This document shows, piece after piece, positions 7,456-34,057 of a stretch of 64,000 nucleotides of DNA. This DNA comes from a virus. The notes under the pieces are model-generated. The model was given only the letters and a program-made list of their open reading frames with translations. It was not told the origin of the DNA and made no database searches. The number at the start of each line of letters is the position of its first letter. Position 1 is the first letter of the stretch. A program made the translations under genes and the position numbers. The stretch is taken from the IMG/VR virus record IMGVR_UViG_3300042301_003932. The stretch is one strand, 5' to 3'.

Positions 7456-9642
7456 TTAAAAATCAAGTTTAACAGGATACTGTTGAATCCCCTGTCTTTT
7501 TTGTGGAGATTGTATCTTAGAAATAACCATAAGTTCTTTATCTGCATTGTAAAGCCCAACTTCGGTTATGTAAGGAGGTGTTATTCCATCCCATGTCGGA
7601 TTTGATGATTTTAAAAACTGTGTCTGTCCTAAATTACAAAGATAATTCATAACATAAATTGTTGCTTGAATATCTGTCTGTAATGTTCCATAAAAATAGT
7701 ATTCCCCACCAAAATTTAAAGTTACTCCTGATTGATTAAGTGTTGGTAAATCAATGTAATTTGCTAAATTATATGTTGGTGCGTTATCATACATATCTTT
7801 TGTTATTTGGAATGTTGTGCCAGTTAAACCGCTTAAAGTAATAAATCCATTTACCGAATAACCTGATAATTGAGACATAACATCAATTTCTCTCCATTGT
7901 GTTGCAACCGGTCTTGTAGTTCCTGTACTTGTTTTTTGAACTAGAACTTTCATTTCATTAGCAGTAAATCCTGATGGTACTGTTAAATTGTTTGATTGTA
8001 AAAATGGAAATTCGTTACCAAATTTTAAAAATATATTATATGTTGATTGTGTTGGGTCATATAAAATCGGAGTTATGTTTGTATAATAATTACAGTGTAA
8101 TGTGTTTGTAAATGCACTACTATTAAACCTATAAGTAACAAAAACCTGTTCGGTATTTGCACTAAGTAACCCTTCAGTGTCTCCAAGAACACCGTCACAG
8201 GCATTTGGTATTATTGTACCTACTTTAGGCGCTGGTAACGTCCAACTTCGGTTTGTCTTGTAATTTAATGATGCAACAATTTCATCATCATCAAAAACCA
8301 CCATTTTCAAATCAGGAAATACTTTTCCAACTCTATTTGGGTATCCTGTTGATGTTACATGTGTGTCCCAAAGGTTATAGTATCTAATTCCCGGATTATT
8401 AAAATCAGCACTTCGTTTAGATTTTATGTAATACGTTTGAAACAAATCCGGTGTAAATCCACTTGGGTCAGTAAAGAAATATTCACCAATGGTTTTATCT
8501 GGATTTTTATGCCACATTAACCATGGCAAACCAATTTTAAGATTTCTTGCTTGTCCTGTTGCTCCTGGATTTGCAGGATCATATTCCTGTTGTGCAAACT
8601 TTTCACCATAAAAATTATCTATTGATTGATTTGTATAATGAACTATTGCGATCGCCTTTTGGTCTGATGGTGGTACTGTAATTTTATCACCTAATGAGTT
8701 ATTAAAATATACTGAACCAGTATCTACTTGACCTGCGTTTGTTTTATAACCTAAATATTCTTTTGTTCCGACATAGGTTCTACCGCTATATAGATTAAAA
8801 TCTTGGTTAGTATTATTAAAGACCCCTGCCGGTGATTCAGTCCAAGGAATGTTCATATTCCAAACTTTTACGTCTGATTGTGAAACATCGCAGTTTGTTT
8901 CAAAATTAAATACGTTTGTTGCCCAATATGGTTCAGGTGTTACTGAATCATAAATTACAGTCATACCTGATGGATAAAAAACAATGTTACTATTTCCACT
9001 ATAACCCATCGTAGAAAAATTAGGTACTTGTCTATCCAATTCTATCGTTACTGTTGTTGCTGATGAAGTGTCTCCCGTTACACCAACTACCACATATGTA
9101 AACATAGGTGTACTTGCAGTCATAGGACTATATCCACCCGTAAACAAAGTCATAAACATACCAGGTGTTACAGTTCCTGATACCGTTACATCAACAGTAT
9201 TTGCAGAAATTACAATAGTATTACCTGATGTTAAATTGGTGTTTGATATTGTAAAGTTGGGATTGATTGTATACGCAGATGATGTGTATAATGTATTTCC
9301 TGTGAAAAATCCTCTTGGTGCTGCCGAGTTGTAAATGTTGTCAACAAAAGACGAATCATAAGGAATACCAAAAGTACTACCTGAATTTGGATCAACAAAA
9401 AGTGGGTATTTAACGTTTAATCTATTATATTCAGGGGCTGGTACTAAATTGTCCGCATTATATTGTGGTGCCAAAACATTTAATTCAACGTAGTTTTGAT
9501 TTGTAATACTATTATAACAAACTTCACTATCTCCTACTTGAAAATAGGAAATGTCAAATTTACCTTGTGAAATCTTTTTTCTTGCGGCGTCAGTTAAAAT
9601 TGTATTAATTAAACCACTTGTTGTTTTAATAATGTATGACAT
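7456..9642 (-). CDS. baseplate/tail-fibre attachment protein (DUF3751-like termini)
   Basis: N-terminus ILTDAARKKI..FDISYFQVGD; C-terminus YITEVGLYNADKELMVISK..VKLDF; T/S/G-rich middle. Confidence 0.65.
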   Translation of the reverse strand: MSYIIKTTSGLINTILTDAARKKISQGKFDISYFQVGDSEVCYNSITNQNYVELNVLAPQYNADNLVPAPEYNRLNVKYPLFVDPNSGSTFGIPYDSSFVDNIYNSAAPRGFFTGNTLYTSSAYTINPNFTISNTNLTSGNTIVISANTVDVTVSGTVTPGMFMTLFTGGYSPMTASTPMFTYVVVGVTGDTSSATTVTIELDRQVPNFSTMGYSGNSNIVFYPSGMTVIYDSVTPEPYWATNVFNFETNCDVSQSDVKVWNMNIPWTESPAGVFNNTNQDFNLYSGRTYVGTKEYLGYKTNAGQVDTGSVYFNNSLGDKITVPPSDQKAIAIVHYTNQSIDNFYGEKFAQQEYDPANPGATGQARNLKIGLPWLMWHKNPDKTIGEYFFTDPSGFTPDLFQTYYIKSKRSADFNNPGIRYYNLWDTHVTSTGYPNRVGKVFPDLKMVVFDDDEIVASLNYKTNRSWTLPAPKVGTIIPNACDGVLGDTEGLLSANTEQVFVTYRFNSSAFTNTLHCNYYTNITPILYDPTQSTYNIFLKFGNEFPFLQSNNLTVPSGFTANEMKVLVQKTSTGTTRPVATQWREIDVMSQLSGYSVNGFITLSGLTGTTFQITKDMYDNAPTYNLANYIDLPTLNQSGVTLNFGGEYYFYGTLQTDIQATIYVMNYLCNLGQTQFLKSSNPTWDGITPPYITEVGLYNADKELMVISKIQSPQKRQGIQQYPVKLDF

Positions 9643-9643
9643 A

Positions 9644-10498
9644 CTAATAAATACTTAAATCTTTGTTATTTTTTTTAATCGTAATTCCCTCTTCTAAAAG
9701 TCTATTTTTTATTTTTTTTTCTATGAGTGGGTCTCTTTTACTTGCAGCTATTAGGTGAGTATATCCTAATTTTTTTGCCAATTCTTCGGAAATAGTTCCC
9801 ATATATTTTTCATGACTTTCACCATAAAACGTTAATAAATCAACGTTATATTTATAAAATTTACAAATACAATATATACAAAATTGCTCATATATTAAAC
9901 AAGATAAATGGTGATCGTAGTTAAACTTTGACTCGTCTAAAAATTTTATGTAATTTAACGATTCCGTCCACCATTCTTGTATTACGTCTAATTTATTGAA
10001 CGCAATAACTCCGCAATTATATGCTTTGACTTTTTCGGTATCAAACCATTTTGGTTTACTTGTATAATTTTTTTCAGCATGATCTAATAACCATTTATAC
10101 CAATATTTTTGTGACTCAGTTTCTAAGTTTTGAAAAGCAGCATCTGATTTTAAAAATTTATCCGGAAGTGGTTTGAATAATATAACGTCAATATCTATAT
10201 GTATAAAAGGTTCTTTTTGTAGTTTGCACGCATAAATTTTTCCTAATGACCAATGGTTTTCATAAATACCCATCATAGCATGTTCCAAACTTGTATCAAT
10301 ATTATCAAAAGACAAACCATACTTTTCAACTAAGTCTTTACCTTCAAAATCGGTAACTAAATACACCTCATCAAACCATTTTTTTGTATAATGTAACGAT
10401 AAAGCAAAACACTCTATTAAATTTTTTTCAGTATTAAACCCTACGGTTTTACCGTTCATAGGTTTTGTCCATAAAGAATAAACTGCTCTTTTTATCAT
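9644..10498 (-). CDS. DUF6734-like putative GT-A glycosyltransferase
   Basis: LSLHYTKKWFDEVYLVTD, WSLGKIYA..Q.EPFIHIDID (DxD), YNCGV, EQ and GYTHL motifs. Confidence 0.7.
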   Translation of the reverse strand: MIKRAVYSLWTKPMNGKTVGFNTEKNLIECFALSLHYTKKWFDEVYLVTDFEGKDLVEKYGLSFDNIDTSLEHAMMGIYENHWSLGKIYACKLQKEPFIHIDIDVILFKPLPDKFLKSDAAFQNLETESQKYWYKWLLDHAEKNYTSKPKWFDTEKVKAYNCGVIAFNKLDVIQEWWTESLNYIKFLDESKFNYDHHLSCLIYEQFCIYCICKFYKYNVDLLTFYGESHEKYMGTISEELAKKLGYTHLIAASKRDPLIEKKIKNRLLEEGITIKKNNKDLSIY

Positions 10499-12117
10499 AT
10501 GTTACCAACCCCTATACCTCCACCTAAACCGTAGTAAACAGTATTTGCTTGTTTTGAGACACCAAAAGTCAAAGTATTTATTGGTGGTATTACTGTTTCG
10601 CAAGGACCATTATTCAATAATATAGTACCATTTACGGTTATTGTGTCATTTATTTTAGCATATGGTGCACAAGTCGCATTTCCGTTTGGTGTTGTAACTT
10701 TCATAAAAACTTGCCCAGTCACTTTACCTGTGCCAACTATTTTTGCACTGTATATTCTTGTAATTCCTGTTGTGTAATAAATTGGGTGACATCCTACAGT
10801 GAGAGATGTGTTACTTGTTTGAGATACGTTAGATGTTAAAAATTGTCCTCCACCCGTAGTTCCTGTTGTTCCTACATATGTTAATGTTGGAACTGCATTA
10901 GAGGAAGTTCCACCAGATAAACTTGACGTGTGAATAATTGTAAAGTTTATTTCTCTGTTTGCAGGTAATGTTGGTGTTACTGATACCTCCCAATTATAAG
11001 TACATTCTCTTGAGATTGATGTGTTTGTTACTGTTGGGTTTGGTGGTACTAAATTCAACGTTACTTGGTAATTTGTTATTGGGTTTTGATTTGATAAAGT
11101 CACTAGTTTTGTACTAATATTACCAATCAAATCTTTTACATAAACCGTATATGTTCCATCAGCCAAACCTAAAAATATGTTTGATATTTGAAAAGTTATT
11201 CCATTTATTGAATATGTGTATGGAGAAGTACCCCCAACAACTGAATTTACAACAATTTTACCGTTACTAACCCCTTCACAAGTTGGGTTGATTGTGCTAG
11301 TTGTAATGTCAAAACTACTTACACAATCACCTTGTGTCACAATCGCAGTTCCTGGTCCGTTATACGTCCATATACCAATTGGTGGGGAAAGTGTTGATTG
11401 TAAAAGTGGTATACCCGTTTGAGTCCAACCTGAAATCATCCATTGTGTTGCACTATTATTATAATACATAGTTAATGTATTACTTGTCCAAGAAGGGTAA
11501 TTATTTATAGTATTAGCAGAATAAAATTGGTATTGTGTTGTTGCAATTGTTGGTGGTAAACCGGGTGTAATTATTTGTGATGTTAGACATAACCCTGATG
11601 TGTTTTCAAGTTGTGGTGTGATCGGTAAACAATCGGTACAGTTTAAAAATGGTCCTGATGTTGTTATAACATTATAATTATAATAACTTTGACCAGAATA
11701 CAATATAAGGCCGTTAGATATCCAACAACCAAGTTGAGAATTAAGTGTAAATGTTACTCCCGTTTGTGTTTGGTTTTCTAAATTAGCAACATAGTATAGT
11801 TTATTATTAAAGTCATTACAATCATAGAACTCCTCTAAATAAAACGTACTATAAGGGACGGTACATGTGGTTGTTGCTGTAAAATCTCCATAATAATCAG
11901 TTACTGTTGCGGTATAATCACCGGCAGCGACACCAGCCAAAAATTGTGTTTGTGCTCCGTTTTCCCAAGTCACACTATATGGAGGTGTTCCTCCTGTAAT
12001 GATTAATGAAGCAACACCATCAACTGTAAATGGTGTAAAAGCACTAATAGTACTACAAGTCACCCCTAAAGGGTACAAAGTTATAATATCACATGTATTT
12101 GCACTGTATCCTGGCAT
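10495..12117 (-). CDS. fibre/virion protein with SprB-like repeats
   Basis: GGTPPYSVTW..AGDYTATVTD and PTC..NGKI..GGTSPYTYSING..GLADGTYTVYVKD repeats; Cys/Thr rich. Confidence 0.7.
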   Translation of the reverse strand: MPGYSANTCDIITLYPLGVTCSTISAFTPFTVDGVASLIITGGTPPYSVTWENGAQTQFLAGVAAGDYTATVTDYYGDFTATTTCTVPYSTFYLEEFYDCNDFNNKLYYVANLENQTQTGVTFTLNSQLGCWISNGLILYSGQSYYNYNVITTSGPFLNCTDCLPITPQLENTSGLCLTSQIITPGLPPTIATTQYQFYSANTINNYPSWTSNTLTMYYNNSATQWMISGWTQTGIPLLQSTLSPPIGIWTYNGPGTAIVTQGDCVSSFDITTSTINPTCEGVSNGKIVVNSVVGGTSPYTYSINGITFQISNIFLGLADGTYTVYVKDLIGNISTKLVTLSNQNPITNYQVTLNLVPPNPTVTNTSISRECTYNWEVSVTPTLPANREINFTIIHTSSLSGGTSSNAVPTLTYVGTTGTTGGGQFLTSNVSQTSNTSLTVGCHPIYYTTGITRIYSAKIVGTGKVTGQVFMKVTTPNGNATCAPYAKINDTITVNGTILLNNGPCETVIPPINTLTFGVSKQANTVYYGLGGGIGVGNI

Positions 12118-12132
12118 AATTTATAGTTTAAT

Positions 12133-12351: not shown

Positions 12352-12355
12352 ACTT

Positions 12356-13987
12356 TTAACAATTTCCGTTTACGTTACATATTTCAGTTAATTTCCCATC
12401 AACGTCTACACTATATATTTTAGTTCCATATTTTATGTAGTCAACAATAACAGGTGTAGTTAATGTTTGATCTTCATAAATATATACCCCCGTTTGTATT
12501 ACAGAATCAGAAGATGAGGTATAGAATGTTATTACTGATCCACCATTTGTTAATTCACATACAGGACAAGAAAGTGAGAACTCACCCCTTGCTCTCCAAA
12601 TACTATAAGATAGTGTTGGTTGAGGTGTTGGTATTAAACAATTTACACAATTTGTATATGTTGTTGCGGTTGTTGCGGTAAATGTTTCAACATAAGACCA
12701 AATATATCCAACAGGTGGTGTATATGAATAATAGTTACCAATATAGGAGTAACATGCTCCTGATGTTGTTTTTAATATATCCCCAATATTAACATTATAT
12801 GGAGGGTAAGTGTATTGAATAATCATTGAGTTGTCTGTACATGATGTAAAAACAAATACTGTGTTTGGTGCGTATGTTGGTGTTATCACTGGCGTTGCGG
12901 TTGGTGTTGGAGTAGGTGTTGGTGTTGGAGTAGGTGTCGGTGTCGGTGCAGGAACTGTACAATATGAGCATCCACTTGTTGATGCGCTTATTACTCCTTG
13001 TAAATAATCGGCAGGACTACCAAATACGTTTTCGGTATATGTTAAACACTTATATTGGTCATTAATTAAACCTAAAATAGTTGTTCCTGTTACGATTGGT
13101 GATCCTGAATATATTATTGGTCCACTGACAAAGAATATATCACTACTATTACAATCCACTAATTTATTTACATTAACACAAACAAAATTACCACTATCAA
13201 TTACAAAAGTCACACCTGAAACTACATTATATGGATAAACAGGTGGTGTGGGTGTTGGTGTAGGGGTTGGTGTAGGAGTTGGTGTTATTGCCGAAAATGA
13301 AACACCTACAGTATACCCTGAACAAATATCTATTGTGGGGGTTGGTGTAGGGGTTGGTGTTACTGTCGGTGTGGGGGTTGGTGTTACTGTCGGTGTAGGT
13401 GTCGGAAACGCACATTCTAAAACAATATCAAAATCTAATATTGAGCACGGATCGTATGGTGTTGGTGTTGGGAAACAAACCCCCGAATAATATAAAGTTT
13501 CATCAATATCGGGACAACTTGACGTTGTTGGGTTAGGTCCATAAAATAGACATGTTGCGGTTAAACCTGAAGTTAAACACCACTTAGTATTATTAAAATA
13601 AAGGTATCCTGGCACAGTTCCACCCGTCCAATATGGGTAACTATTATAGTTCCCAGCAACCTCATATGTTCCATTGTACCCTGAATATGTGTTAATTGAT
13701 ATATTAATACATATGTCATTGCTACAACAATCACCAGTCAAACAAAGTGTATCAGAACAATCTGTTTGAATGGTATAAACACCGTCAAATATTGAAAATG
13801 TTGTTGCGGTAAAACCACTCGTAAATGCCGAGACAATAGTATAACAACCATCAGGAACAACGGGGTCACCTGAAAAATGATATGTTAAACCTGTTGTTGC
13901 GGTACCACCGGTAGCAACCCAAGCGGCGTCGTTAGTTACATATTGGTAACCATCATAACAACAACCTTGAAATCTTAAATCCGCCAT
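12356..13987 (-). CDS. Cys-rich modular fibre protein with mucin-like (PT)n linkers
   Basis: Three long PT/PTVT tracts separating Cys-rich modules; located in the fibre cluster. Confidence 0.75.
   Translation of the reverse strand: MADLRFQGCCYDGYQYVTNDAAWVATGGTATTGLTYHFSGDPVVPDGCYTIVSAFTSGFTATTFSIFDGVYTIQTDCSDTLCLTGDCCSNDICINISINTYSGYNGTYEVAGNYNSYPYWTGGTVPGYLYFNNTKWCLTSGLTATCLFYGPNPTTSSCPDIDETLYYSGVCFPTPTPYDPCSILDFDIVLECAFPTPTPTVTPTPTPTVTPTPTPTPTIDICSGYTVGVSFSAITPTPTPTPTPTPTPPVYPYNVVSGVTFVIDSGNFVCVNVNKLVDCNSSDIFFVSGPIIYSGSPIVTGTTILGLINDQYKCLTYTENVFGSPADYLQGVISASTSGCSYCTVPAPTPTPTPTPTPTPTPTATPVITPTYAPNTVFVFTSCTDNSMIIQYTYPPYNVNIGDILKTTSGACYSYIGNYYSYTPPVGYIWSYVETFTATTATTYTNCVNCLIPTPQPTLSYSIWRARGEFSLSCPVCELTNGGSVITFYTSSSDSVIQTGVYIYEDQTLTTPVIVDYIKYGTKIYSVDVDGKLTEICNVNGNC
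12893..12950. repeat. 6-bp-period tandem repeat encoding (PT)n
   Basis: Degenerate 6-bp units such as ggtgtt/ggtgtc/ggagta. Confidence 0.85.
13243..13406. repeat. tandem repeats encoding PTPTPTVT / (PT)n
   Basis: Includes a near-exact 24-bp duplication ggggttggtgttactgtcggtgt(g/a). Confidence 0.85.
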
Positions 13988-14043: not shown

Positions 14044-14835
14044 TCATTTGAAAATGTCAAAATATTGCCTCCAATCGGACTTTATGATATTATAATTTTC
14101 TTTATTGTCTAAATAACAGAAATCCAAATATTTTTCTTCGCTACCAACAAACTCCAAGTCTAAGTGGTTTTGTATTAAAGTTATAAAATGTTTAATAAAT
14201 GGATATATAACCCCATTATTAGGAACAAAAAAACAACCTCCATGAATATATCTAAATTGTGATAGTAAATGAAATGGTCTATCGGGAACTAAAAACTCTT
14301 CGTGATGACTAAAAAATGTTATTTTATCATTATATTTTTGATTAATTTTTTCAACATTCGGGAACCCTCGTTTAATTTCAGGGTTATCGTTTCTAAGAAC
14401 CCCAGCATCACACCAAATGAACATATCAGAATCAAAATGTTTCTTTTCTATTGAGCTTTTAATGAAGTATGGTTTATTGAAAATTACGATGTTGTATAAC
14501 GATTCTGTCATTTCGGGGACTTTGAAATGTATTTTAGATTTAAAATTTTCAGATATCATTAGATTAAAAACCTTTTCATGAAACATCTTATATGAATCTA
14601 AATTTTCAATTTTGTCTATGATTATGATCGTTTTATCTAAATTGGGGTCAACAACACTTCTTTGTTCTTTTATAAAACCTTCAAACTTTTCTTCCGTATA
14701 TATTACCATTTTAGAGTCAAACAAAAGTAAGTTTCTCATCCACATCATATATGTGTGGTAAGATAACCCATAGTTAGACCACTTGTCCCTTCCAATATCA
14801 AATAATGCGGTAACTATAGTTGGATTTTCAATCAT
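14044..14835 (-). CDS. HtrL/YibB (WlaTC-like) glycosyltransferase-family protein
   Basis: TIVTALFDIGR..W, MVIYT, PE....YN....NKPYF, FIWCDAG, GGCF and SEE motifs; likely start ATG 14835 (ATGA overlap with GT60 stop). Confidence 0.75.
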   Translation of the reverse strand: MIENPTIVTALFDIGRDKWSNYGLSYHTYMMWMRNLLLFDSKMVIYTEEKFEGFIKEQRSVVDPNLDKTIIIIDKIENLDSYKMFHEKVFNLMISENFKSKIHFKVPEMTESLYNIVIFNKPYFIKSSIEKKHFDSDMFIWCDAGVLRNDNPEIKRGFPNVEKINQKYNDKITFFSHHEEFLVPDRPFHLLSQFRYIHGGCFFVPNNGVIYPFIKHFITLIQNHLDLEFVGSEEKYLDFCYLDNKENYNIIKSDWRQYFDIFK

Positions 14836-16067
14836 ACGGCCCCTTCTAATTTTTCTAACCAATCTTTTGTTTTAGAATGAGCCCAAACAGTCCATGACTT
14901 GGGTTTTCTATATGTTAAAAATTGCCTTCTTATTGTTATTTCATTTTTTATGTAATTATTAATTTCCGATTCTGTTGCATCTTTTCTATAAATTTCTTGT
15001 CCGTTTTCGTCGTGATATATTACCGCCCAAAAATCATAATCATCTTGTGTGAAATTGTTTTTATCTAAACTTATTTCATGTTCAAACATAGATGAAAAAC
15101 TTTTTTCCCATTCTTTTTCGTTTTCTATTTCAGGATTTGGTGGGTAATTTTTTTGTAGTGTGTATTCTTGTACTGATCTTTTTTCAAACAACAATCCAGC
15201 GTATTTTTCATAATCCCTTAATGCCCTAACATTTCCTAAACCATATTTTCCAACATGTCCTTCTTGATTTTCACCATCCATACCAAAAAGTTTCCTATTT
15301 AATAAATGTGCACTTTCATTCTTTTTATACCATTCTTTATCGTCGTCCCACTGTTTTACTCTACCATTTCTTGTATATTCATGCCAAATAACCACTTTAT
15401 GGGGGTGAAATAAATCATATCCGTGAGTGAAGGCCCTAACTGCGATTGATATCTCTTCTCCATGAAAATAAAAATCAGGGTTGTGTTGAACTTCTTTACT
15501 AAATTGACCTAATGTAAAACAAAAATGGGCGGAATAAAATCTTGATGGTATCGGCGTATCAATATTTTGCCAATCAGGAATTGCTTCAGGTAAGAAGAAA
15601 ACGGCACCTTCAGGTATAAATTTGTCAAATACCATTCGCCAAGGCACTCTTACTCTTCCGTTTGGGTCGTTATTTGGGTCGTAAGAAGATACGTAACCTG
15701 TTAATAGTGGTTTTGGTATTCCTAAGTCTTGCAGTTGTTTAATCATACCTATTAGAGTCTCATCCCAATCTTTTTCAAATCTCATATGTGAATCTATCTG
15801 TAAGGTATATTCCTCGTCTTTATATAGTTGTTGTACTTGATTACGAGCCCAACAAACACCTTTTGATTCTTGGTGTGGTATGTTTAAAACTCTAAACCTA
15901 TCGTCAATTTCATATTCAGTAAGATCGTCAAACTTATCGTCAGGATGAAATTGTCTTGCAATTCCAAAAACTAAATTCTCAGGATGTTTAGAATTTTCTA
16001 AGCATGATTTGATTGTTGGTATTAATTCCGGATCTCTATAAGATGCGATTTGAATAAATATTTTCAT
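14832..16067 (-). CDS. GT60-family (Skp1-hydroxyproline/polypeptide) alpha-N-acetylglucosaminyltransferase
   Basis: IFIQIASYRDPEL..T, GVCWAR, LQIDSHMRF..WD (DxH) and FHGEEISIAVRAFTHGYDLFHP..VIWHEY are hallmark motifs of the Pfam 'GlcNAc' family. Confidence 0.88.
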   Translation of the reverse strand: MKIFIQIASYRDPELIPTIKSCLENSKHPENLVFGIARQFHPDDKFDDLTEYEIDDRFRVLNIPHQESKGVCWARNQVQQLYKDEEYTLQIDSHMRFEKDWDETLIGMIKQLQDLGIPKPLLTGYVSSYDPNNDPNGRVRVPWRMVFDKFIPEGAVFFLPEAIPDWQNIDTPIPSRFYSAHFCFTLGQFSKEVQHNPDFYFHGEEISIAVRAFTHGYDLFHPHKVVIWHEYTRNGRVKQWDDDKEWYKKNESAHLLNRKLFGMDGENQEGHVGKYGLGNVRALRDYEKYAGLLFEKRSVQEYTLQKNYPPNPEIENEKEWEKSFSSMFEHEISLDKNNFTQDDYDFWAVIYHDENGQEIYRKDATESEINNYIKNEITIRRQFLTYRKPKSWTVWAHSKTKDWLEKLEGAV

Positions 16068-17763: not shown

Positions 17764-18051
17764 TTATTGAAACGAAAATGGTATTCCGTCCATAAAATCA
17801 AAGAATATTCCATCTTGGAAAGCCTTGAAATTAACACAATCTATTGGATATAATTTTATGCATCCGATAGTGTCAATAATTTTTAAATATAAAAAAGTTT
17901 CGTAAGGAAAATATGATTGTGTGTCAATCACAATTGTTGCCGGTATTGAAGTTAGCCCTGATATATAAAAACAACCTGTATTTGTTGGGTCGCATAAATA
18001 AACGTCATATGGTTCAACTCCACCAGTATCTCCTGTTATATTAATTATCAT
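17764..18051 (-). CDS. small virion protein (paralog family), C-terminal FQDG/FMDG repeat
   Basis: GGVEPYDVYLCD...C...LKIIDTIGC. Confidence 0.7.
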   Translation of the reverse strand: MIINITGDTGGVEPYDVYLCDPTNTGCFYISGLTSIPATIVIDTQSYFPYETFLYLKIIDTIGCIKLYPIDCVNFKAFQDGIFFDFMDGIPFSFQ

Positions 18052-18069
18052 AATAATAAATATGTATAA

Positions 18070-18357
18070 CTACCAAACTAACGCGTCCCCACCTTCTGTT
18101 GTTAAAAAATCACCTAATTCTGTAAGGATAAAATAATCATCTTCAGGAGCACAAGAAATAATTTTGAAGTAAATACAACCCGTACTATCAACCGATTTAA
18201 CCATAATGGTAGTTGCGGTCTGTAATAATGTTGGTAAAACATATATTCCGGGTGCGTAACCTAAAAGTGTGCAATTATTCCCATATTCATCACAAGCATA
18301 GAACGCTATTGGTGCGGTCCCCCCTGAAACTCCTGTTATGTCTATTGAATACGGCAT
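18070..18357 (-). CDS. small virion protein (paralog family), C-terminal LTExGD repeat
   Basis: GGTAPIAFYACD...C...VKSVDSTGC; ends ILTELGDFLTTEGGDALVW. Confidence 0.7.
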   Translation of the reverse strand: MPYSIDITGVSGGTAPIAFYACDEYGNNCTLLGYAPGIYVLPTLLQTATTIMVKSVDSTGCIYFKIISCAPEDDYFILTELGDFLTTEGGDALVW

Positions 18358-25056: not shown

Positions 25057-26139
25057 TTATGTATTATTAATTTTAAAATAACCATATCCATATCTTATTA
25101 AATCACCCAAATTATCAACCTCACCTAATCTTTGTAATCCCTCAACAGCACTGTATTTACCTCTTTCAACAAATACGTCAGATTGTATTTCAGGATCCAT
25201 TACAAAATCTAAAAGTATTTCATCTTTAGTTATTGCGGATACAACTAAATCATTAGCAGTTAAACCTGATGAATTAACCAAGAACAAAGTTTTACCATTA
25301 TTGAAATCAACATAATTAATATCATTAACCGTATATGCTGTGTACGTTGGGTTAATTTCAGTAACATATCCAATCACTCCTTTTATTGGGGTTAATATGT
25401 ATCCAACCGTATATGGGTTAGGTCCCCATCTTCTAAGGAGTGCCAATCTTGAATTAGTATACCCTGAAACCACAAAAGGTACTTGTAAATATGAACTTGA
25501 TATTTGTGAGGGAATATTATTTTCACTATCTCCTGTAAATATGTAATCGTAACTAATTGGTATTCCGGACCAATTTCCTCCTTGTTGTGTGAATGTTATA
25601 TTACCTGGTTCATTATCAACGGTAACACCTGTAAAAGGTAATGTTATTGTTTTTTGTATTTCAGTTATCCCCCAGGGGTTACTCTGAACCATTTTAATTG
25701 TATAATTTTGTGGTGTTGGTGAATACGTGTGATCTAAACTACTTTGATTAACACTCAAATATTGACTAACTAAACCATCTCCCCAATCTACTTTGTAATT
25801 TGACAATTCCAAAAAACTATTATACGTATAACCTGCACTATTATAAAGTCTGACATTATATTGTGAAGTTGGGTTACCTGATATGACAAAGTTTGTGACA
25901 ACATCTAATTGGTTGGATAGTCCGTCAAACGTACTATAATAACCTAAATCATTATATGATTGTGTAAATAAAATAGGTATAGTTAATCCAGTTAATAATG
26001 ATTCTCCATTTGTTCCTCCACTTAAAACTTGAGACAATCCCGAATAAGACCCAAAAGTTATTCCGTTATAAGTAATATTAAATATGTCACGATTTAATAC
26101 TTCAGGTGATATTATTATATTAATTCTTTCTGATTCCAT
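25057..26139 (-). CDS. putative structural protein with PKD-like domain
   Basis: YKVDWGDG...LDHTY......YTI motif. Confidence 0.6.
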   Translation of the reverse strand: MESERINIIISPEVLNRDIFNITYNGITFGSYSGLSQVLSGGTNGESLLTGLTIPILFTQSYNDLGYYSTFDGLSNQLDVVTNFVISGNPTSQYNVRLYNSAGYTYNSFLELSNYKVDWGDGLVSQYLSVNQSSLDHTYSPTPQNYTIKMVQSNPWGITEIQKTITLPFTGVTVDNEPGNITFTQQGGNWSGIPISYDYIFTGDSENNIPSQISSSYLQVPFVVSGYTNSRLALLRRWGPNPYTVGYILTPIKGVIGYVTEINPTYTAYTVNDINYVDFNNGKTLFLVNSSGLTANDLVVSAITKDEILLDFVMDPEIQSDVFVERGKYSAVEGLQRLGEVDNLGDLIRYGYGYFKINNT

Positions 26140-27056
26140 TATGGGTTAACATATTCATACCATTTTATAGGTAAAATACCTGTTCCGACTCTTTGTGCGT
26201 TTTGAAAGTTATTATTGTAAGTGTAAACTTTATATTCGTTTGTGTTATAATCAATAACATATTTGTAATAAAAATATAATGGTTTGTCTAAATTAAACAT
26301 GTTTTGACCAATGAATGTTGACTGTGGTCTATTCATCATTCTAACAAATTGACCTGTTTTTGCATTAAAGAATTTCGCACCAACGTAAAATTCTGTAATG
26401 TTTAAATAATTTTTATCTTTTAACCAATATATATAAAACCCTTCTTTATCTGCCCCTGTGTAGTCCAAAACAAATTTAGGTTTTTTTACTTGTACCGCGG
26501 TTTGGTTTAATGGTGGTCCTATTGTTCCCGGTTCTTTAAGTCCTTGTTGTGTTGGTAAAATAACACTTAATAATAAAGTTTGATTTTCATTTTGTGGTGA
26601 GTCATAAAAATCTAATTTAAAAAAACTTCCTTTGAATGAATTTGCAAAATAATAAATTTCGCTGTCGGTAAATGTTGCGTTTTCATAATCTGTCGCCCAA
26701 TTTGTTGTTGTTGATGCTGTAACCCCAGTTAAATAATCAAAAAAATAAAACTCGTAATTTGTGGAGGTTTTTTGTACATTTGTAATATTAATTGGTAAAT
26801 TAACTACACTTTGTTGTCCTGTATTTGGATTTATTATTACAACTTGTGTTGTTGTTGTTATTACTTCATCGTATTCTGAGTGTGCAAACTTTGTTATTTC
26901 AAAATCAGAGATTGGATTTAATATTTCAGAAATTACTTCATTTTCAAAACTTGCAACACCGTCTTCTCTTCCAAGCATATCAAAATTAATTTCCAAAGGA
27001 ATATCTAAATATTGATCCTGAGCTGTGATTGTTTTTCTAAAATATTTATTATTCAC
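26139..27056 (-). CDS. putative structural protein
   Basis: 305 aa, translationally coupled within the baseplate cluster. Confidence 0.55.
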   Translation of the reverse strand: MNNKYFRKTITAQDQYLDIPLEINFDMLGREDGVASFENEVISEILNPISDFEITKFAHSEYDEVITTTTQVVIINPNTGQQSVVNLPINITNVQKTSTNYEFYFFDYLTGVTASTTTNWATDYENATFTDSEIYYFANSFKGSFFKLDFYDSPQNENQTLLLSVILPTQQGLKEPGTIGPPLNQTAVQVKKPKFVLDYTGADKEGFYIYWLKDKNYLNITEFYVGAKFFNAKTGQFVRMMNRPQSTFIGQNMFNLDKPLYFYYKYVIDYNTNEYKVYTYNNNFQNAQRVGTGILPIKWYEYVNP

Positions 27057-28806
27057 AAGTATCGTTTGTTGGAAGATTTATTTCATTATAAATAAAAGAT
27101 GTATTTCTTTTGGTTGGAAAATGTATAAAATTTATTGTTTTGAACGGATAGTGAGCTCCGTTCATAAAGGGCATATCTAAACCAATACCCTCACTATCAA
27201 CAAATCCATAGTTATATATATCTCTCCAATAAAATTGTCCATTAGTGTTAGAATAATAAGAGTGAAAAGGTACGTTATCTATATCTTCAAGTGCCGCATT
27301 TTCAATATAATCACTAAAGGTTCTTATAGGTATTGAATAATGTGGTTTATAAAGATACCCAGGAGGGTATAACACTGTGTTTGTATAATTTGAAACAGCA
27401 ACGGCAATTGCCTGACCAAAATTAGCAGGTATTGGTTGTGATATATTAAAAACATCAGGATTGTATGAGTACTTATGGTATATTGGTGATAACACGTATT
27501 CTTTTTGTTCAATATCATTGTATTCGCAAAAATCCCCTTTAATAACATCATCAACGTTCAAAAAATTATTATAATAAAAAGTGAATCCGGCCATTTGATA
27601 CGAACTTACTGTTATGTTTTCTTTGTTATCTGTTGATGTATGATTCCACCAGGGGTCTGTTGTATTTTGTAAAAAGTTAAACTCCCACCCTATGTCAATT
27701 GATCTTTGTAAAGATTGTGGTGGTTTATTAAACCATCCCATGTAACCTCTATTCACTATTGTAACAAAAAGTTCGGTAATGGGTTTTCCGTTATTATCTA
27801 ATAAATTAAATGTGTCAATATCTTTATTAACTGTAAACCCATAACTTTGCGTGCCATCTTTAACTGAAATTCTTTGTTGGTTATTTGGTGTCAATGCGGA
27901 ATACTCCAATTTTCTTTTAATAGGAAATGCGTTATTTTCAAAGGCCATTTTTGTTAAAAATGTCTCATTATTTGATGTTAAAATTTTATGTAACCTAACA
28001 TAGTATCTAGAAGTCGTATCTCCAGTATTATTTAAATCTACTATTCTTTTAAAATTTCCATAAGTTCCGTCAATAATATCGTTATCAGGAAACTTTAAAT
28101 TATATATCGCAAAAACCCTAAGTTCAGACCTATATGTGTCATCGCCCAAACTATAAACTTGAAATGTGTCTTTACCGTCTATTGTTATATTTAATTTTAC
28201 GTACTGTCCTACAGTTAAATTATGGTTTGTTGCACAATAAAAATAAACTAAATTTTTTCCATTTTGAGTTTTGTTTTTTATAACAAATGGTATTCCATCC
28301 GCAACATTAAAATTAGCATTTGTTACATTAAAATCTTCATCAACAAATGACATTGTTTGTGCGGTTGTACTACTAAAAGCATATGACACGTATGTCATCC
28401 AATTATATGTTGTTGCACTTTTTGGAACAAAACTAACATGTCCAGGTATTGCGCTATCTCTTATGATTGAAAATTCATCGTATTGTGGATATCCTTTCCA
28501 TACTCCAGTATTAATAGAATTAACAGGATCTAAATAATAAAGATAGTTTTTAAATGGTGTATAATCTGTTTTTCCTGAAGTTACATTATCAAAAATATTT
28601 ACAATTTTACCATTCAATCTAAAAATACTTGAGTTTTGTCTTTCACTATCAAATATTTCTCTAAGGTTTATTAAAGTGGCTCGGTCGCCTTGTACCATTT
28701 CACGTCTTTCACCAATAAGGGGTAATTGTATTTGCACAGGTTGATTAGACGAACCAGCAAAACGCTTGTTACCTAAAACTATTCTTATTTCATCTTGCTT
28801 TCTCAT
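27049..28806 (-). CDS. putative structural protein
   Basis: 585 aa; NHNLTVGQYV resembles the 'HGL..G..V' beta-barrel repeat of phage structural proteins. Confidence 0.55.
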   Translation of the reverse strand: MRKQDEIRIVLGNKRFAGSSNQPVQIQLPLIGERREMVQGDRATLINLREIFDSERQNSSIFRLNGKIVNIFDNVTSGKTDYTPFKNYLYYLDPVNSINTGVWKGYPQYDEFSIIRDSAIPGHVSFVPKSATTYNWMTYVSYAFSSTTAQTMSFVDEDFNVTNANFNVADGIPFVIKNKTQNGKNLVYFYCATNHNLTVGQYVKLNITIDGKDTFQVYSLGDDTYRSELRVFAIYNLKFPDNDIIDGTYGNFKRIVDLNNTGDTTSRYYVRLHKILTSNNETFLTKMAFENNAFPIKRKLEYSALTPNNQQRISVKDGTQSYGFTVNKDIDTFNLLDNNGKPITELFVTIVNRGYMGWFNKPPQSLQRSIDIGWEFNFLQNTTDPWWNHTSTDNKENITVSSYQMAGFTFYYNNFLNVDDVIKGDFCEYNDIEQKEYVLSPIYHKYSYNPDVFNISQPIPANFGQAIAVAVSNYTNTVLYPPGYLYKPHYSIPIRTFSDYIENAALEDIDNVPFHSYYSNTNGQFYWRDIYNYGFVDSEGIGLDMPFMNGAHYPFKTINFIHFPTKRNTSFIYNEINLPTNDTCE

Positions 28807-28807: not shown

Positions 28808-31800
28808 CTATTCAGTACCTATAATATACTTAGTTATAAATCTGTTTAATGCGGTTTTTCCTTTACCAAGACCAAAATAAAAATGATATGGTGCACCTAC
28901 AACAAAATTTGGTTTATTTTGATTACTTGGGTTTGACCATACATAATCTCTTTCTCCCAAATTGTTGTAATTAAAAATATACCCAGTACTAGGACCGTTA
29001 GTCGCTTTAAAATAATCGGCACCTGTAAACGACATGTTTTGATAAGGTACAGAATACATTTGATTAGTATTTAATGGAATGTCGGTTAACCAATCATTTT
29101 TTTCGGTTCCAAATATAGTACTTGGGGTTGTAGTTGCCTGACCTTGATCATTTCTTATTTCCCAATTATACATAGGGACTACTTGTGTTTTAGGGTACCC
29201 TACAAGTTGTTGGATGTTCCCAAAAGTGGCGAATCCTGGAGTTAAAGCGACTCTATTTTGTGTGATAGCTGAGAACAACACACCATAAAATATCTCATTA
29301 GGTGTTCCTAAAACTATATCATCATTTCCGTAGAATTGTTCATTAAATGGTATGATTCCATATTCTGAATTAATACTAAACATTTGAGCCACATCACCAT
29401 CAATTCTATCATCTGATCTTGAAAAAAGTTGGTTAATTGATGCGTCACCTCTACTAAGTGCCAACTCCCAAAAACCTGTATTAACTAATCTTGACACTAT
29501 AAATAATAAAAGTAGATCACTTGTATCATTAAACGATGTTGATTGTATTGTTTCTACTAGATAATTTTCTAATTGTGGGTTCAAGCAAATTTCTTTTGCA
29601 AATTGGTCTCTTGGTCCCAAATCCATAATAGTCGTAGGAAAATGTAAATTTCTTTGGTTGACTCCTTTTCCATAAATATTTTTAATGTGGTTTCCATTAT
29701 ATTTTGGTTCTTGACCAATAAAATAACCTATCACGTTTGTTCCGTTTTGTTGTAAAACGTATGGTGTGGATCTATAATAAAAAGTATTTGTTTGATCATC
29801 TAAATAAATTGGTCCTTGATTTTGTCTTCCTGGTACTAAGTCAAAATCTTTTGACCCACAAAAGACGTATTTTTTAGGATTATTTTGTGCATCAAATATA
29901 GTTTTCTTTTTAAACGCATAAGAATATAAAGTACCATTTACCCAATTATTTTGAAATACGTGACTTATCACACCTCTACATGCCCCAAATAATAATCTAA
30001 ATCTTGATTTCCACTCAAAGAAATTATTATAATCTCTTAAAATAGCACCATTATTTAAATATGGTTCTTGAATTAACTTATAACACCCTTTTGTTATTCT
30101 TGTTGGATTTTCATTTTCGGGACATGGTGATTTTACACCAAAATTATCTCCTGATCCGCTATAACAAGGTAATGGAACCATCCCTTCACAACTAAATGTT
30201 GAAAGTACTGATGTTGTTCCTGAAATAGCGTCTTCAGCATAATCATCAGAGTTTCCTGTATAATCAGTTTGTATCCCTCCCAATTGTACAACATCCCCAC
30301 TATCTAAAATTCTATATATTGTAAAATTATCGTTTTGATACAATGCGTAACCATTGTTACCATTTGTTTGTGTTGTGTCAGATGTTGGGAGTCTATCTGA
30401 CCTTATAATTATTCTAGCATTATCAACATTCGTATCAAATGTCATTGTTTTAGATAAGTTAGGTGTTTCTTTAAAATATGCCGGGGCAAAAAGTCTTGGT
30501 TTTCTGTGTCCATTTCCAAAACCATTACTTCCACCATTATTTGCACCACTTGCCGAATTTACATAATTTGTAACAGTTTGTTCATTTAAAAAATCCATAT
30601 CGGCAATATAATCTCCATTATTATTTACAAAATTAATATTAGTGTATAAAAACGACCCCCCTTCAACGTTTCCTTGAAATACCTGTTCGTCTTGATTTTG
30701 TGCGTTCCTAACTTGCATTTTGTATGTTTGTTGCGTCCCATAAAAAGACCAATCAGTTAGTCCGTTATCAATGTATAAACCACCAAAATTATTATTTGCA
30801 ACTACAAGGCAATTACTTAAATCATAATCATCAGTAGAATAAACTTTGTATGGTGTATATAATATTCTTTTTTTGTCTAATGCCGAATAGTATTTTATTG
30901 ATGTTGTAGTAAATGCCGAAAATAAATTTGGGTCGGGTCTAAAATTAAATGGTTTGTGATATAATGTAGACAATCCACTATCAAATGGAAAATCAACTTC
31001 GTGTGATTCAGGTGTTTTGGCATTTATCCACCAATCAGCACCAGGTCCTCCACTATTTGGTTGTATAGGTATGTTTAAATAAAATTTACCTTTTACTGTT
31101 TGTGAGTTATTAGCATATCCGAATAATTTAGACAAATCATATTTAATTACTTGTTTTTCACTAAAAGGGTCCACCCCTCTTACTAAAATTAAAACATTCA
31201 AATTTTCCCATGAATTTCCATTAATTGTTAGTGGATTTATTAATGACTTTACCGTTGGTTCTCCGCCACAACTTTGTCTATAATATATCCAAGTGGTTGC
31301 CCTTGTGAAAAAAGTTCCTATGAAATTAAAAGGATATTGTCCTGATGGTACAGATCCATTAACTAATTGTGCGGCTTTGAGTGCTGTCATTCCGGTAATT
31401 ACTTGAAAGTATTCTAATCCTCCTTTAAATTTATATTCTCTTTGTGTTGTTGATCCAGTTAAATATAAATTTGCAGTCCCTACTGAGGAATCTGATTTAA
31501 TGTATGTTAAAGTAACGGTTGTTGCAGTTTGTGATGTTCCTGTTATTCCTTTACCCCCAAATTGATTTTCTGTAACGCCACTTACGTTATACCCATCTTT
31601 ATTTTTATCGTCAACATTATCAGGGTTGGTAAATGTTAAAAGTGAACCTGAAGGTAAACTATCAATTGTACCAGTATCACACAATAAAACCATAACATTA
31701 TCGGTGAACGGTTGGGAAGTGTACCCATCATTTTCAATTGTTGTTGTTATTATATTTTGGATAGATGGTGTTTGTGTATCAAAATATCTTTGTCTTATAT

Positions 31801-34057
31801 TTGCCAAATTTATTCTTTGTGAGTACGTTATACCGGTTTGAAAGAATATTCTTCCTTGAGGAAAGAATAATCTGTTTATTGGTGTTCCTTGTACTGTTCC
31901 ATTTGGGTAACCAGCTAATGAGTATTTTATTCCGTATGAGTTTAATGTATATTTTTGTCTCTCCAACAACGCACCTCCATTAAATGCTTCTGTCCTCAAA
32001 TTACAAAATGCAGGACTGTCTGAACAATCATTATTATCGTCACCACCGGCAGAACAATTTTCTTCATTCGGTGTATTTGCCCAAAAATTATTAGAATTTA
32101 AATCAGATAAAAATGATGAATTTTTTCTAGTATATATTTGATTATTTCTTACTGAAATAACAGTTAAATTACCGTTTGTTCCATCTCCAACTATTTCTTC
32201 AACATTAAGTGATTGTGGATCACATGAACAAGCTTCACAGTCTGGATATGTCATGGAGGGCAATGTAATTCCTCTCAGATTTGATGTTGCGTTAATTAGT
32301 GGGCTCACTTTTAAAATATAAAAAGCGGTAGCTAACCCAAAAATTAATGCAGTACCCGCACTCAAAATCATTAAACCAATAGCCGGAAATGCAGCAATTG
32401 CAGCTAAAGTAAAGTTTACTGTTAAATAACCTAAAAATAATGGTACACCAATACTTAATGCCCATCTAGCAACTGGCCAAAATTTTGCAATTAAATGTAA
32501 TAATGGTATTAACACAACCGCTAACAAAGAAAATAATGTTATTACAATGTTTGCTAAGAAAAATATTAAATCAAAATTTCTAACACCGTCATTTACAGGC
32601 ATCCTATTTGTAGTTGTACTACATTCCCTATTTGTAATTTCTTTTATCCCTAAATGTCTTGACCTATTAAACCCCCACTTCCACCTATCAATAAAACTTG
32701 AAACAGTATAAACTCTATTATAATTAAATTCAAAAAACTTGTCTTCACAGTTAATTGCGTCAGCAATCATTTTTTGACCAATCGTTGTTCCAGTATCACC
32801 ATAATCAGTCCAATCTAAACTAAATGCATATGATTGTCTTTGTAATGTATCGTCCGCAGGTCCGTTTGCACTTATTGTTGAGTTCCAACCGTATTCTCTA
32901 ATATTAGGAACCAAATAATCGGCTCTTTGTGTTGATGCCGCAAACCCTTCATTTTGGTATTGGATTTTAAATCTGTATTTTGCCTTTGTTGGAATACCCA
33001 CTTTAGGGTCATTTGATATTACTTGTTCACCAAATTCATTTGTTGTAATATAATCCAAATTCATCGGCATCTCAATTAACCAAGTACCGTCACTATCAAT
33101 AATATTTCCACCTTCAGGTAATTTATACTGTTCTAATATTGGATATCCTCCCGCATCGGTATATATTGTTTGTCTGATTGCTAAAATGGTACCAGGAGCC
33201 GTAACCAAATCACATAGATTTCCTGTGTCAAATTTTGGTTTACAATTAGTTTGTAATGCATCTTCGTCTGTTGTTGAAAACATTGATCCCATGAATATTG
33301 CTTGAGGTTCAATTTGAATTCCCAAATCCCTCAAATCAAAATCCACTCTTGTAATTCCAATATTACATAACTCATCATCTCCCCAAAACGAAGTTACTTC
33401 AACTTCTTTCTTTTCATTTACAATTTGTGGTAAAGAATCTAAATCAGGTGATGATTTAAATGAAGACCCCTCAAACTGACCTTCACTCCCCATACCCATT
33501 CTAATTAAATCAGAAGGCCTTAAAGAGAAACAACCAATGTTTGATACATCCATATCCATTACAACGATTTGTTGTCCTAATGGAACCCCAACAATCATAA
33601 AATCACCACTATCATTTGTTCTTACGGTGTATTTATAATATTTTTCATAAACTTCTAAAACTGTACTGTCACTTACAACATCTTCTCTATCAGGAAATGT
33701 GCCTGTTGGGTTGTGTCCTCCATATTCTTGAACATATGGTAATAAATTATATCTATATCCTTCTTCATTTTTGTCTGTTAAAGTTTTATATGGATATAAT
33801 GTTGAGATGACAGGATCTTCAGAGTCTTCTATAGAAAGAGGAACAAATACTGATACAGTAACGTTTGGTACCCCATACCCACCATTTGCAATAACTCTTC
33901 CGGCAACTACACCATAATCGGCACAAAATCTCGTATAAACGTCAGATTGTTTTAATTTTAATGATAATATTTCAATAAAATCAAAATCTTGATCTACTTT
34001 AATTCTTATGTTTTTATCTATACCTGGTGTGGTTCTTAATCTATAATTTTTAGACAT
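28808..34057 (-). CDS. giant baseplate-associated protein with carboxypeptidase-regulatory-like domain and internal hydrophobic segments
   Basis: YGVVAGRV...GVPNVTVSVF...TNDSGDFMIVGVPLG; ~90-aa hydrophobic block; directly follows the gp6-like gene. Confidence 0.65.
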   Translation of the reverse strand: MSKNYRLRTTPGIDKNIRIKVDQDFDFIEILSLKLKQSDVYTRFCADYGVVAGRVIANGGYGVPNVTVSVFVPLSIEDSEDPVISTLYPYKTLTDKNEEGYRYNLLPYVQEYGGHNPTGTFPDREDVVSDSTVLEVYEKYYKYTVRTNDSGDFMIVGVPLGQQIVVMDMDVSNIGCFSLRPSDLIRMGMGSEGQFEGSSFKSSPDLDSLPQIVNEKKEVEVTSFWGDDELCNIGITRVDFDLRDLGIQIEPQAIFMGSMFSTTDEDALQTNCKPKFDTGNLCDLVTAPGTILAIRQTIYTDAGGYPILEQYKLPEGGNIIDSDGTWLIEMPMNLDYITTNEFGEQVISNDPKVGIPTKAKYRFKIQYQNEGFAASTQRADYLVPNIREYGWNSTISANGPADDTLQRQSYAFSLDWTDYGDTGTTIGQKMIADAINCEDKFFEFNYNRVYTVSSFIDRWKWGFNRSRHLGIKEITNRECSTTTNRMPVNDGVRNFDLIFFLANIVITLFSLLAVVLIPLLHLIAKFWPVARWALSIGVPLFLGYLTVNFTLAAIAAFPAIGLMILSAGTALIFGLATAFYILKVSPLINATSNLRGITLPSMTYPDCEACSCDPQSLNVEEIVGDGTNGNLTVISVRNNQIYTRKNSSFLSDLNSNNFWANTPNEENCSAGGDDNNDCSDSPAFCNLRTEAFNGGALLERQKYTLNSYGIKYSLAGYPNGTVQGTPINRLFFPQGRIFFQTGITYSQRINLANIRQRYFDTQTPSIQNIITTTIENDGYTSQPFTDNVMVLLCDTGTIDSLPSGSLLTFTNPDNVDDKNKDGYNVSGVTENQFGGKGITGTSQTATTVTLTYIKSDSSVGTANLYLTGSTTQREYKFKGGLEYFQVITGMTALKAAQLVNGSVPSGQYPFNFIGTFFTRATTWIYYRQSCGGEPTVKSLINPLTINGNSWENLNVLILVRGVDPFSEKQVIKYDLSKLFGYANNSQTVKGKFYLNIPIQPNSGGPGADWWINAKTPESHEVDFPFDSGLSTLYHKPFNFRPDPNLFSAFTTTSIKYYSALDKKRILYTPYKVYSTDDYDLSNCLVVANNNFGGLYIDNGLTDWSFYGTQQTYKMQVRNAQNQDEQVFQGNVEGGSFLYTNINFVNNNGDYIADMDFLNEQTVTNYVNSASGANNGGSNGFGNGHRKPRLFAPAYFKETPNLSKTMTFDTNVDNARIIIRSDRLPTSDTTQTNGNNGYALYQNDNFTIYRILDSGDVVQLGGIQTDYTGNSDDYAEDAISGTTSVLSTFSCEGMVPLPCYSGSGDNFGVKSPCPENENPTRITKGCYKLIQEPYLNNGAILRDYNNFFEWKSRFRLLFGACRGVISHVFQNNWVNGTLYSYAFKKKTIFDAQNNPKKYVFCGSKDFDLVPGRQNQGPIYLDDQTNTFYYRSTPYVLQQNGTNVIGYFIGQEPKYNGNHIKNIYGKGVNQRNLHFPTTIMDLGPRDQFAKEICLNPQLENYLVETIQSTSFNDTSDLLLLFIVSRLVNTGFWELALSRGDASINQLFSRSDDRIDGDVAQMFSINSEYGIIPFNEQFYGNDDIVLGTPNEIFYGVLFSAITQNRVALTPGFATFGNIQQLVGYPKTQVVPMYNWEIRNDQGQATTTPSTIFGTEKNDWLTDIPLNTNQMYSVPYQNMSFTGADYFKATNGPSTGYIFNYNNLGERDYVWSNPSNQNKPNFVVGAPYHFYFGLGKGKTALNRFITKYIIGTE

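Follow-up and report, generated by a model that had tools for sequence, protein, structure and literature searches.

The window analysed here (the whole stretch of 64 kb) is the minus strand of positions 16900-80899 in a 112,067-bp IMG/VR virus record (IMGVR_UViG_3300042301_003932) with a guanine-plus-cytosine (GC) content of ~31%. Our subject is a module of ~12 large structural genes at 7456-34057, located downstream of gp25-like and gp6-like baseplate genes, in which the tetrapeptide [S/T]-[G/A]-x-T (hereafter [ST][GA]xT) is heavily overrepresented and which also encodes a glycosyltransferase (GT) of family GT60. CheckV completeness of the record is ~37%, and since related contigs of 291-295 kb are rated 97-98% complete, the record is a piece of a jumbo myovirus of ~300 kb. 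By the baseplate wedge protein the nearest cultured relative is Flavobacterium phage vB_FspM_immuto (29.5% identity), and SprB repeats are present in two structural proteins of the window; the host therefore likely belongs to Bacteroidota. Neither near-identical DNA to window positions 7000-30000 nor a homolog of the 728-residue (amino acid, aa) protein of the module was found among GenBank phages. The features concerned are the following, with motif sites given as observed versus expected:

7456..9642, minus strand: virion protein of 728 aa, no known family; 18 sites versus 1.84, the densest in motif
9644..10498, minus strand: DUF6734 protein (PF20508, 3.7e-41), between the 728-aa gene and the next fibre gene; 0 sites
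10495..12117, minus strand: SprB-repeat structural protein, 540 aa; 10 versus 3.04
12356..13987, minus strand: Thr-rich protein, 543 aa, with three proline-threonine (PT) linkers; 15 versus 2.56
14044..14862, minus strand: HtrL_YibB-family protein, 272 aa (PF09612, 4.3e-19); 0 sites
14832..16067, minus strand: GT60-type PF11397 ("GlcNAc") glycosyltransferase (PF11397, 1.6e-67; phrog_24687, 5e-159 over the full length); 0 sites
16109..17731, minus strand: tail fibre, 540 aa, with a C-terminal S74 intramolecular chaperone; 17 versus 3.93
17764..18357, minus strand: two proteins of 95 aa; 2 sites each versus 0.12 and 0.31 (orthologs 3.7x and 7.8x)
18359..21124, minus strand: SprB-repeat protein, 921 aa; 16 versus 4.69
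21115..24117, minus strand: structural protein, 1000 aa; 7 versus 1.41 (orthologs 3.6x)
24117..25025, minus strand: module protein of 302 aa, an internal contrast; 0 versus 0.46
25057..26139, minus strand: protein of 360 aa; 7 versus 0.66 (orthologs 11.5x)
27049..28806, minus strand: protein of 585 aa; 5 versus 0.60
28808..34057, minus strand: baseplate-associated giant protein, 1749 aa; 10 versus 2.92 (ortholog in the relative G011, 10 versus 2.4)
34130..35968, minus strand: gp6/Baseplate_J-like wedge protein (phrog_219, 2.5e-21), a core baseplate contrast; 0 versus 0.91
62247..64000, minus strand: tail sheath, truncated at the window edge (its length in the genome record is 1073 aa); 7 versus 2.5

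Pooled over nine large proteins of the module, 105 [ST][GA]xT sites were observed against 22.0 expected from within-protein shuffles (z 17.6), with per-protein enrichment spanning 3.3-fold to over 10-fold. Shuffling inside blocks of 30 or 15 residues, which keeps S/T/G-rich patches in place, raised the expectation only to 23.6 and 24.4 respectively (z 18). Compositional patchiness was rejected as the cause, as the block shuffles keep the enrichment and near-miss patterns are weakly enriched: at position 4, T gave 4.8x, S 1.3x and V/I/L 1.05x; at position 1, residues other than S/T gave 0.76x; position 2 required G or A (S, N, P and D all ~1x); and shifted registers of the motif gave ~1.5x. On the other hand, a hydrophobic residue at position -1, present at 60 of the 105 sites, lifted the enrichment to 8.6x. 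When all three-residue patterns were scanned without bias in four spacings, SA.T, TG.T and SG.T ranked right behind the PT-linker patterns; thus the motif was not a post-hoc pick. A DNA-level cause was likewise rejected: 100 distinct 12-mers were found among the 105 sites and their codons were diverse, so the signal lies at the protein level. Within the 112-kb record the enrichment was limited to the module, plus the weaker excess in the sheath, while non-structural proteins, the three glycan-related proteins, the wedge protein and the 302-aa protein had essentially no sites. Moreover, N-x-S/T was not enriched on the nine proteins (1.05x). Therefore the motif excess is real, specific and, as the homologs below demonstrate, clade-wide.

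These figures agree closely with the first-pass annotation of this DNA. Its counts were exact for 7456..9642 (18), 12356..13987 (15) and 25057..26139 (7), and where it spoke of many sites in the open reading frames (ORFs) starting at 10495, 16109, 18359, 21115 and 28808, we counted 10, 17, 16, 7 and 10 respectively. It had supposed that composition would yield only a few sites in the 728-aa protein (1.84 by shuffling), that the sheath carries some (7 versus 2.5 expected), and that ribonucleotide reductase (RNR), helicase, RecA and primase together hold about two; two were counted, one of which is the Walker A of RecA (TGKT). The distinction that it drew from the Bacteroidota sequon D-[S/T]-[A/I/L/V/M/T] also held up, the latter being unenriched on the nine proteins (22 observed versus 26.8 expected, 0.82x). 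The check it had proposed, composition-preserving shuffles of structural versus non-structural proteins, left the enrichment standing both over whole proteins and locally.

For the 728-aa protein, 2,586 homologs were found in databases. In 120 close ones the median was 18 sites against 1.7 expected; S exchanged with T and G with A, the third residue was free (in keeping with the variable third residue pointed out in the first-pass annotation) and the final Thr was almost invariant. Across 80 related loci all orthologous families retained the enrichment, and among 81 full-length representatives of the 728-aa family, down to 26% identity, most were 4-12-fold enriched. Although density was held, positions were not: in 29 divergent motif-rich representatives the 343 sites were spread over 134 alignment columns (71 unique), and two proteins at 15-30% identity had only 1-1.6 of their ~11-12 sites in common. 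Furthermore, 13 of 82 representatives, scattered over the tree, had 0-1 sites, implying at least nine transitions of motif gain or loss (shuffled labels gave 12.2, which is close). At the aligned site positions the motif-free orthologs carry N/D/G/K/E, i.e., ordinary hydrophilic loops, and the structural neighbours in these lineages are likewise motif-poor with ordinary Thr content. A search for an alternative sequon in the motif-free lineages found only conserved family blocks. Enrichment on particular substrates, with density held and positions shifting, is the behaviour of a sequon; in particular, density kept despite turnover and lineage-wide switching is predicted by selection on a modification site and not by a fold-determined turn.

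Several motif-free lineages (L148 and L129) have a very low GC content (22-25%), and one contig name refers to a saline-lake brine sample. GC alone cannot explain motif loss, since the genes of another motif-free lineage (L126) are at 30-41% GC. Habitat may correlate with the loss.

The placement of the sites was followed on an AlphaFold2 (AF2) model of the 728-aa protein, which reached a pLDDT of 88.3 and a pTM of 0.87 with a diverse 82-sequence alignment (a shallow alignment gave an unusable model, pLDDT 46). The modelled fold is irregular, multi-domain and beta-rich and includes several helices; no solved structure resembles it, and among predicted structures the one close match is a homolog from an uncultured phage. 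By the DSSP string the G/A of the motif was in coil at 14 of 18 sites (versus ~65% coil overall), and about half of the sites bordered on a strand, at its end or its start: T114, for example, closes one strand, a G-N turn follows and T117 opens the next. Sites spanned residues 87-641, none being found in the first 86 residues or past 641, and both site-free ends hold many nearly invariant residues. A beta-solenoid turn was rejected for this protein, given the irregular site spacing (3 to 108 residues), the multi-domain architecture with helices and the lack of any solenoid match; regular motif spacing was seen only locally, at residues 58-194 of the fibre 16109..17731. The model thus sides with the first-pass annotation on its solenoid check, indicating a non-solenoid protein with sites mostly in loops. 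As modelled, the coil placement is compatible with exposure and also with a turn motif. The sheath gives the cleaner spatial signal: all seven sites fall outside its conserved C-terminal core, and the 14 sites of the G011 sheath ortholog (phrog_23) span residues 127-662, leaving its core (768-1062) free.

Among the other motif-bearing proteins, some sites coincide with repeat consensus sequences. At least one site of 10495..12117 (TGGT then PPY, residue 41) and several of 18359..21124 (e.g., SGGT then GPY, and TGLT then AGNY) lie on the SprB-repeat consensus. In the fibre 16109..17731, 12 of 17 sites are in residues 58-194, spaced 8-15 residues apart inside recurring blocks (such as VTG-x-T / NNTGGT), and are therefore not independent. 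The strongest enrichment, on the other hand, was in non-repetitive proteins without SprB or fibre repeats: 10x for the 728-aa, 10.6x for the 360-aa and 8.3x for the 585-aa protein. The Thr-rich protein 12356..13987 has overlapping site clusters at residues 26-35 and 53-63. Its PT-repeat linkers (residues 210-217, 235-248 and 348-363), which the other eight proteins lack, are O-glycosylation targets of the classic mucin-like kind, similar to the substrates known for GT60. The motif-free 302-aa protein 24117..25025 might be buried, or might be an assembly component outside the virion; its 21 orthologs hold three sites in total against 7.5 expected.

The module supplies a candidate enzyme. The product of 14832..16067 matched PF11397, the GT60 family of polypeptide N-acetylglucosamine (GlcNAc) transferases, at 228.9 bits (cut-off 21) in two stretches (profile positions 2-43 and 92-351). 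About 150 positions were invariant in 80 sequences, Xanthomonas phage homologs included; D92-S93-H94 is among them and may, by analogy, equate with the catalytic, metal-binding D-x-H of GT-A enzymes. No transmembrane (TM)-like segment was present and the protein is predicted to be soluble. Relatives of this GT60 occur on 370 IMG/VR contigs. Those GT60 relatives that have been characterised are Mn-dependent enzymes that attach alpha-GlcNAc to Thr of polypeptides (PMC3769586), in line with the motif's strict need for Thr. From its family assignment, 14832..16067 is a candidate initiating polypeptide O-N-acetylhexosamine (HexNAc) transferase. A literature search found no characterised phage or bacterial GT60 member, and a text search of papers on DNA-glycosylating phage GTs found no mention of GT60, PF11397 or XacN1, which is no functional exclusion. 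A hydroxyproline route was rejected, no 2-oxoglutarate (2OG)-Fe(II) oxygenase (PF13640) being encoded in the 112-kb fragment (~37% of the genome).

Two further genes of the module are glycan-related. The HtrL_YibB gene 14044..14862 overlaps the end of the GT60 gene; this uncharacterised family is known from lipooligosaccharide/lipopolysaccharide (LOS/LPS) loci (PMC4172580). Its relatives at L087:1180-2811 and L153:1694-3376 are 543-567 aa long, one with a weak C-terminal GT2-like stretch, and the copy in the window looks like a shortened version without that C-terminal half. The DUF6734 protein 9644..10498 had Atlas matches only to DUF6734 clusters, from phages and bacteria, and was found in only two of the 80 related loci. 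PDB sequence searches with the DUF6734 protein and the GT60 found no relatives. Clade relatives also encode gmd-family and several GT2 genes; in the closest long relative (G013, the L014 record) the region at ~41-57 kb holds a bona fide GDP-mannose dehydratase (3e-125), another member of that family and five or more GT2-type genes in ~16 kb, a large phage glycan-synthesis cluster by gene content.

Motif and GT60 were then compared across genomes. In 37 of the 80 related loci a motif-rich ORF lay within two genes of GT60, while motif-rich ORFs are ~3% genome-wide. PF11397 is missing from the complete genomes of immuto and of Microcystis phage Mel-JY01; significantly enriched ORFs numbered 1 of 198 and 0 of 221 respectively, and their baseplate and fibre modules stood at 1.5x and 1.2x with comparable S/T/G content. 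The comparison with GT-less relatives named in the first-pass annotation thus came out unenriched for two GT60-less phages, though each carries two GT2 genes. By contrast, in the 98%-complete relative G011 10-11 of 329 ORFs were enriched (115-121 sites versus ~30) and the remaining ORFs were not (69 versus 77); the enriched set also included the tail sheath, a gp23-like capsid protein and a LamG fibre directly adjoining GT60. GT60 is also encoded on each of the three longest tested contigs that carry divergent motif-rich homologs, at a distance of 69-134 kb from the 728-family gene. In two motif-free lineages (L087 and L153) the syntenic HtrL-type gene is kept and the GT60 slot is occupied by a CmcI-like methyltransferase or a GT7C-like gene. 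Judged by these genomes, the link between motif and GT60 is correlative.

Several lines of evidence lead us to favour, with belief and doubt nearly in balance, hydrophobic-[S/T]-[G/A]-x-T as the acceptor-sequon core for a phage-directed O-glycosylation of exposed virion loops, with GT60 as the likely initiator. During infection the soluble GT60-type enzyme (14832..16067) would transfer a HexNAc, probably GlcNAc from uridine diphosphate (UDP)-GlcNAc, onto the hydroxyl of the motif Thr (or of the S/T) in the host cytoplasm; substrates would be fibre, baseplate-periphery, sheath-outer-domain and capsid proteins. The sugar could be extended by other phage enzymes (the HtrL-like protein, possibly DUF6734, and the GT2 and nucleoside diphosphate (NDP)-sugar enzymes seen in relatives), the outcome being a glycan coat over the particle. 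Because the motif is confined to proteins of the fibres and baseplate, the outer sheath domains and a capsid protein, the phage probably coats its own particle with sugars. The first-pass annotation had proposed that a phage glycosyltransferase targets the motif and coats the virion: a GT60 gene does lie inside the module, and the motif's specificity, distribution and evolution are observed, while its modification, the enzyme responsible, the sugar added and the function of the coat are our inference. The wider picture is of an abundant freshwater jumbo-phage clade with self-encoded, cytoplasmic, sequon-directed O-glycosylation, in which GT60 would read a surface-loop motif and found a shield on fibres, baseplate, sheath exterior and capsid, the sequons being gained, lost and moved like those in the glycan shields of enveloped animal viruses; we regard it as plausible, with doubt having the upper hand.

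A number of observations weigh against glycosylation by GT60. Phage GTs can modify DNA or host glycans instead. Part of the signal in three proteins is SprB or fibre-shaft repeat consensus and has to be discounted, and some Thr-rich proteins of the clade are unenriched (L094/L095 neighbours, 24 versus 26). In the Xanthomonas phage Xoo-sp13 the motif is enriched nowhere (ratio 0.89) despite a 44%-identical GT60, and the neighbours of the XacN1 GT60 are also unenriched; thus GT60 presence alone does not predict the motif. In several relatives GT60 is 69-180 kb away from the 728-family gene, and it was not seen on seven shorter motif-rich fragments (24-41% completeness, hence uninformative). Its absence in motif-free lineages was read from contigs of 6.6-21 kb, so that the gene could sit elsewhere, and these lineages retain glycan-related module genes. 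IMG/VR scans for longer contigs of the motif-free lineages (with P0128, P0131, P0254, P0191, P0246 and P0261) gave no close relatives; the metagenome scan for such lineages added only L148 and L153.

The most serious competitor, which we nevertheless consider unlikely, is that [ST][GA]xT is an unmodified structural turn or strand-cap motif heavily used in beta-rich proteins, with the GT genes serving host-surface or DNA modification. In detail, the S/T would cap, the small residue would sit in the turn and the beta-branched Thr would open the next strand. As modelled, the strand-loop junctions at about half of the 18 sites of the 728-aa protein, together with the hydrophobic residue that precedes 60 of the 105 sites, also fit such a turn; the sites that are SprB consensus or repeat units of the fibre 16109..17731, and the distant GT60 without motif in Xoo-sp13, also speak for it. 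However, a turn leaves unexplained why density is conserved and positions are not, why at least nine on/off transitions occurred within the 728-aa family and why same-fold orthologs place N/D/G/K/E in those very loops. Comparably T/G-rich fibres and spikes of immuto are unenriched; the motif occurs in unrelated folds, yet only in particular virion proteins and outer sheath domains; and the exchange of G with A is unexpected were a positive-phi glycine turn needed. A modification or recognition site for something other than GT60 seems improbable to us: another phage enzyme (HtrL-like, DUF6734 or GT2), a host enzyme, or phosphorylation, acylation or methylation would then account for the motif, and GT60 might act on the PT linkers or another substrate. 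Eukaryotic GT60 substrates are indeed Thr/Pro-rich mucin-like stretches or hydroxyproline (PMC3769586) and 12356..13987 has PT linkers, GT60 is distant from many motif-rich genes, and Xoo-sp13 has the enzyme without the motif; but PT linkers are in only one of nine proteins, HtrL-like genes persist in motif-free lineages, DUF6734 is in 2 of 80 loci, the motif-less comparators carry GT2 genes too, and neither D[ST][AILVMT] (0.82x) nor N-x-S/T (1.05x) is enriched. Finally, the motif could be a functional surface, for example hydroxyl arrays binding host polysaccharide, mucus or particles, for which its limitation to outward-facing virion parts could argue and whose gain and loss by lineage could track host or habitat; this we hold to be very improbable, as the strict spacing, the preference of T over S and the need for a small residue across unrelated folds are left unexplained, and the sites are single and scattered through loops rather than arrayed.

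Phage-directed O-glycosylation of this kind would differ from each known system. Its likeness to the GT60 transferases (Dictyostelium Gnt1/DdGnt2 and Trypanosoma cruzi TcOGNT-2) lies in the strong PF11397 match and in a Thr-directed acceptor preference, which would fit T >> S (PMC3769586). The known GT60s are eukaryotic and act on Skp1 hydroxyproline or Thr-rich mucin repeats, whereas here the sites are spaced [ST][GA]xT in folded, beta-rich proteins. Gnt1 is cytoplasmic and soluble, and the phage GT60 is alike in lacking a TM-like segment. In mycobacteriophages, virion glycosylation reportedly (Freeman et al. in 2023, cited in PMC12582341) involves phage GTs near structural genes, with virion proteins as proposed or proven substrates; that system is said to differ in host phylum and GT families and to be without a defined short sequon. 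Actinophage glycans are on capsid and tail-tube subunits, unlike the many fibre and baseplate proteins proposed here. Bacteroidota general O-glycosylation resembles our case in likely host phylum and in a short O-linked sequon on many proteins, but its sequon is unenriched here, and it acts outside the cytoplasm on exported proteins while phage particles assemble in the cytoplasm. Chloroviruses and other giant viruses encode their own transferases and sugar-nucleotide enzymes, comparable to the gmd-family and GT2 genes of the relatives, and the proposed likeness is a cytoplasmic modification of structural proteins at a non-canonical sequon; chloroviruses, however, are a eukaryotic-virus system with N-linked glycans on the capsid protein, whereas the proposal here is O-linked and mainly concerns tail proteins. 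SprB and fibre-shaft repeats share some sites with the motif and differ in that the strongest enrichment is in proteins without such domains.

To our knowledge, phage virion glycosylation is so far known only in actinobacteriophages and a short acceptor motif has been defined for no phage. If the motif is indeed glycosylated, it would be the first defined bacteriophage O-glycosylation sequon and the first GT60 function outside eukaryotes, giving the family a role in prokaryotic viruses and biochemistry a simple peptide substrate. It would then become possible to predict, directly from metagenomes, which virion proteins are glycosylated and which surfaces of uncharacterised structural proteins are exposed. 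It would also raise the role of the sugar coat: resistance to proteases or grazing, adsorption, particle stickiness, or evasion of host surface defences. The clade is very common in lake metagenomes, and because of the 2,586 homologs of the 728-aa protein and the 370 IMG/VR contigs with the GT, its ecological reach could be large.

Several minor observations were made along the way. In XacN1, ORF350 (L001:926-2890) is 654 aa long with 17.9% Thr and has 0 [ST][GA]xT sites versus 4.1 expected; it lies ~12 kb from a cluster formed by the GT60 homolog, a carbamoyltransferase and GT9, and is possibly a different type of substrate for the Xanthomonas-phage GT60. Within the window two giant ORFs (44868-51338 and 51647-57520, minus strand; 2156 and 1957 aa, no PHROG match) lie between the replication and the tail-tube/hub genes, and their motif excess is not significant (4 versus 1.9 and 5 versus 2.5 expected). 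The RNR, DnaB-like helicase, exonuclease and RecA/UvsX-like recombinase (36799-42617, minus strand) stand between the baseplate wedge genes and these giant ORFs, an unusual interleaving of replication and structural genes. At the other end of the window, a D12-class N6-adenine DNA methyltransferase (2004-2831, minus strand; PF02086, 2.1e-31) adjoins a calcineurin-like phosphoesterase.

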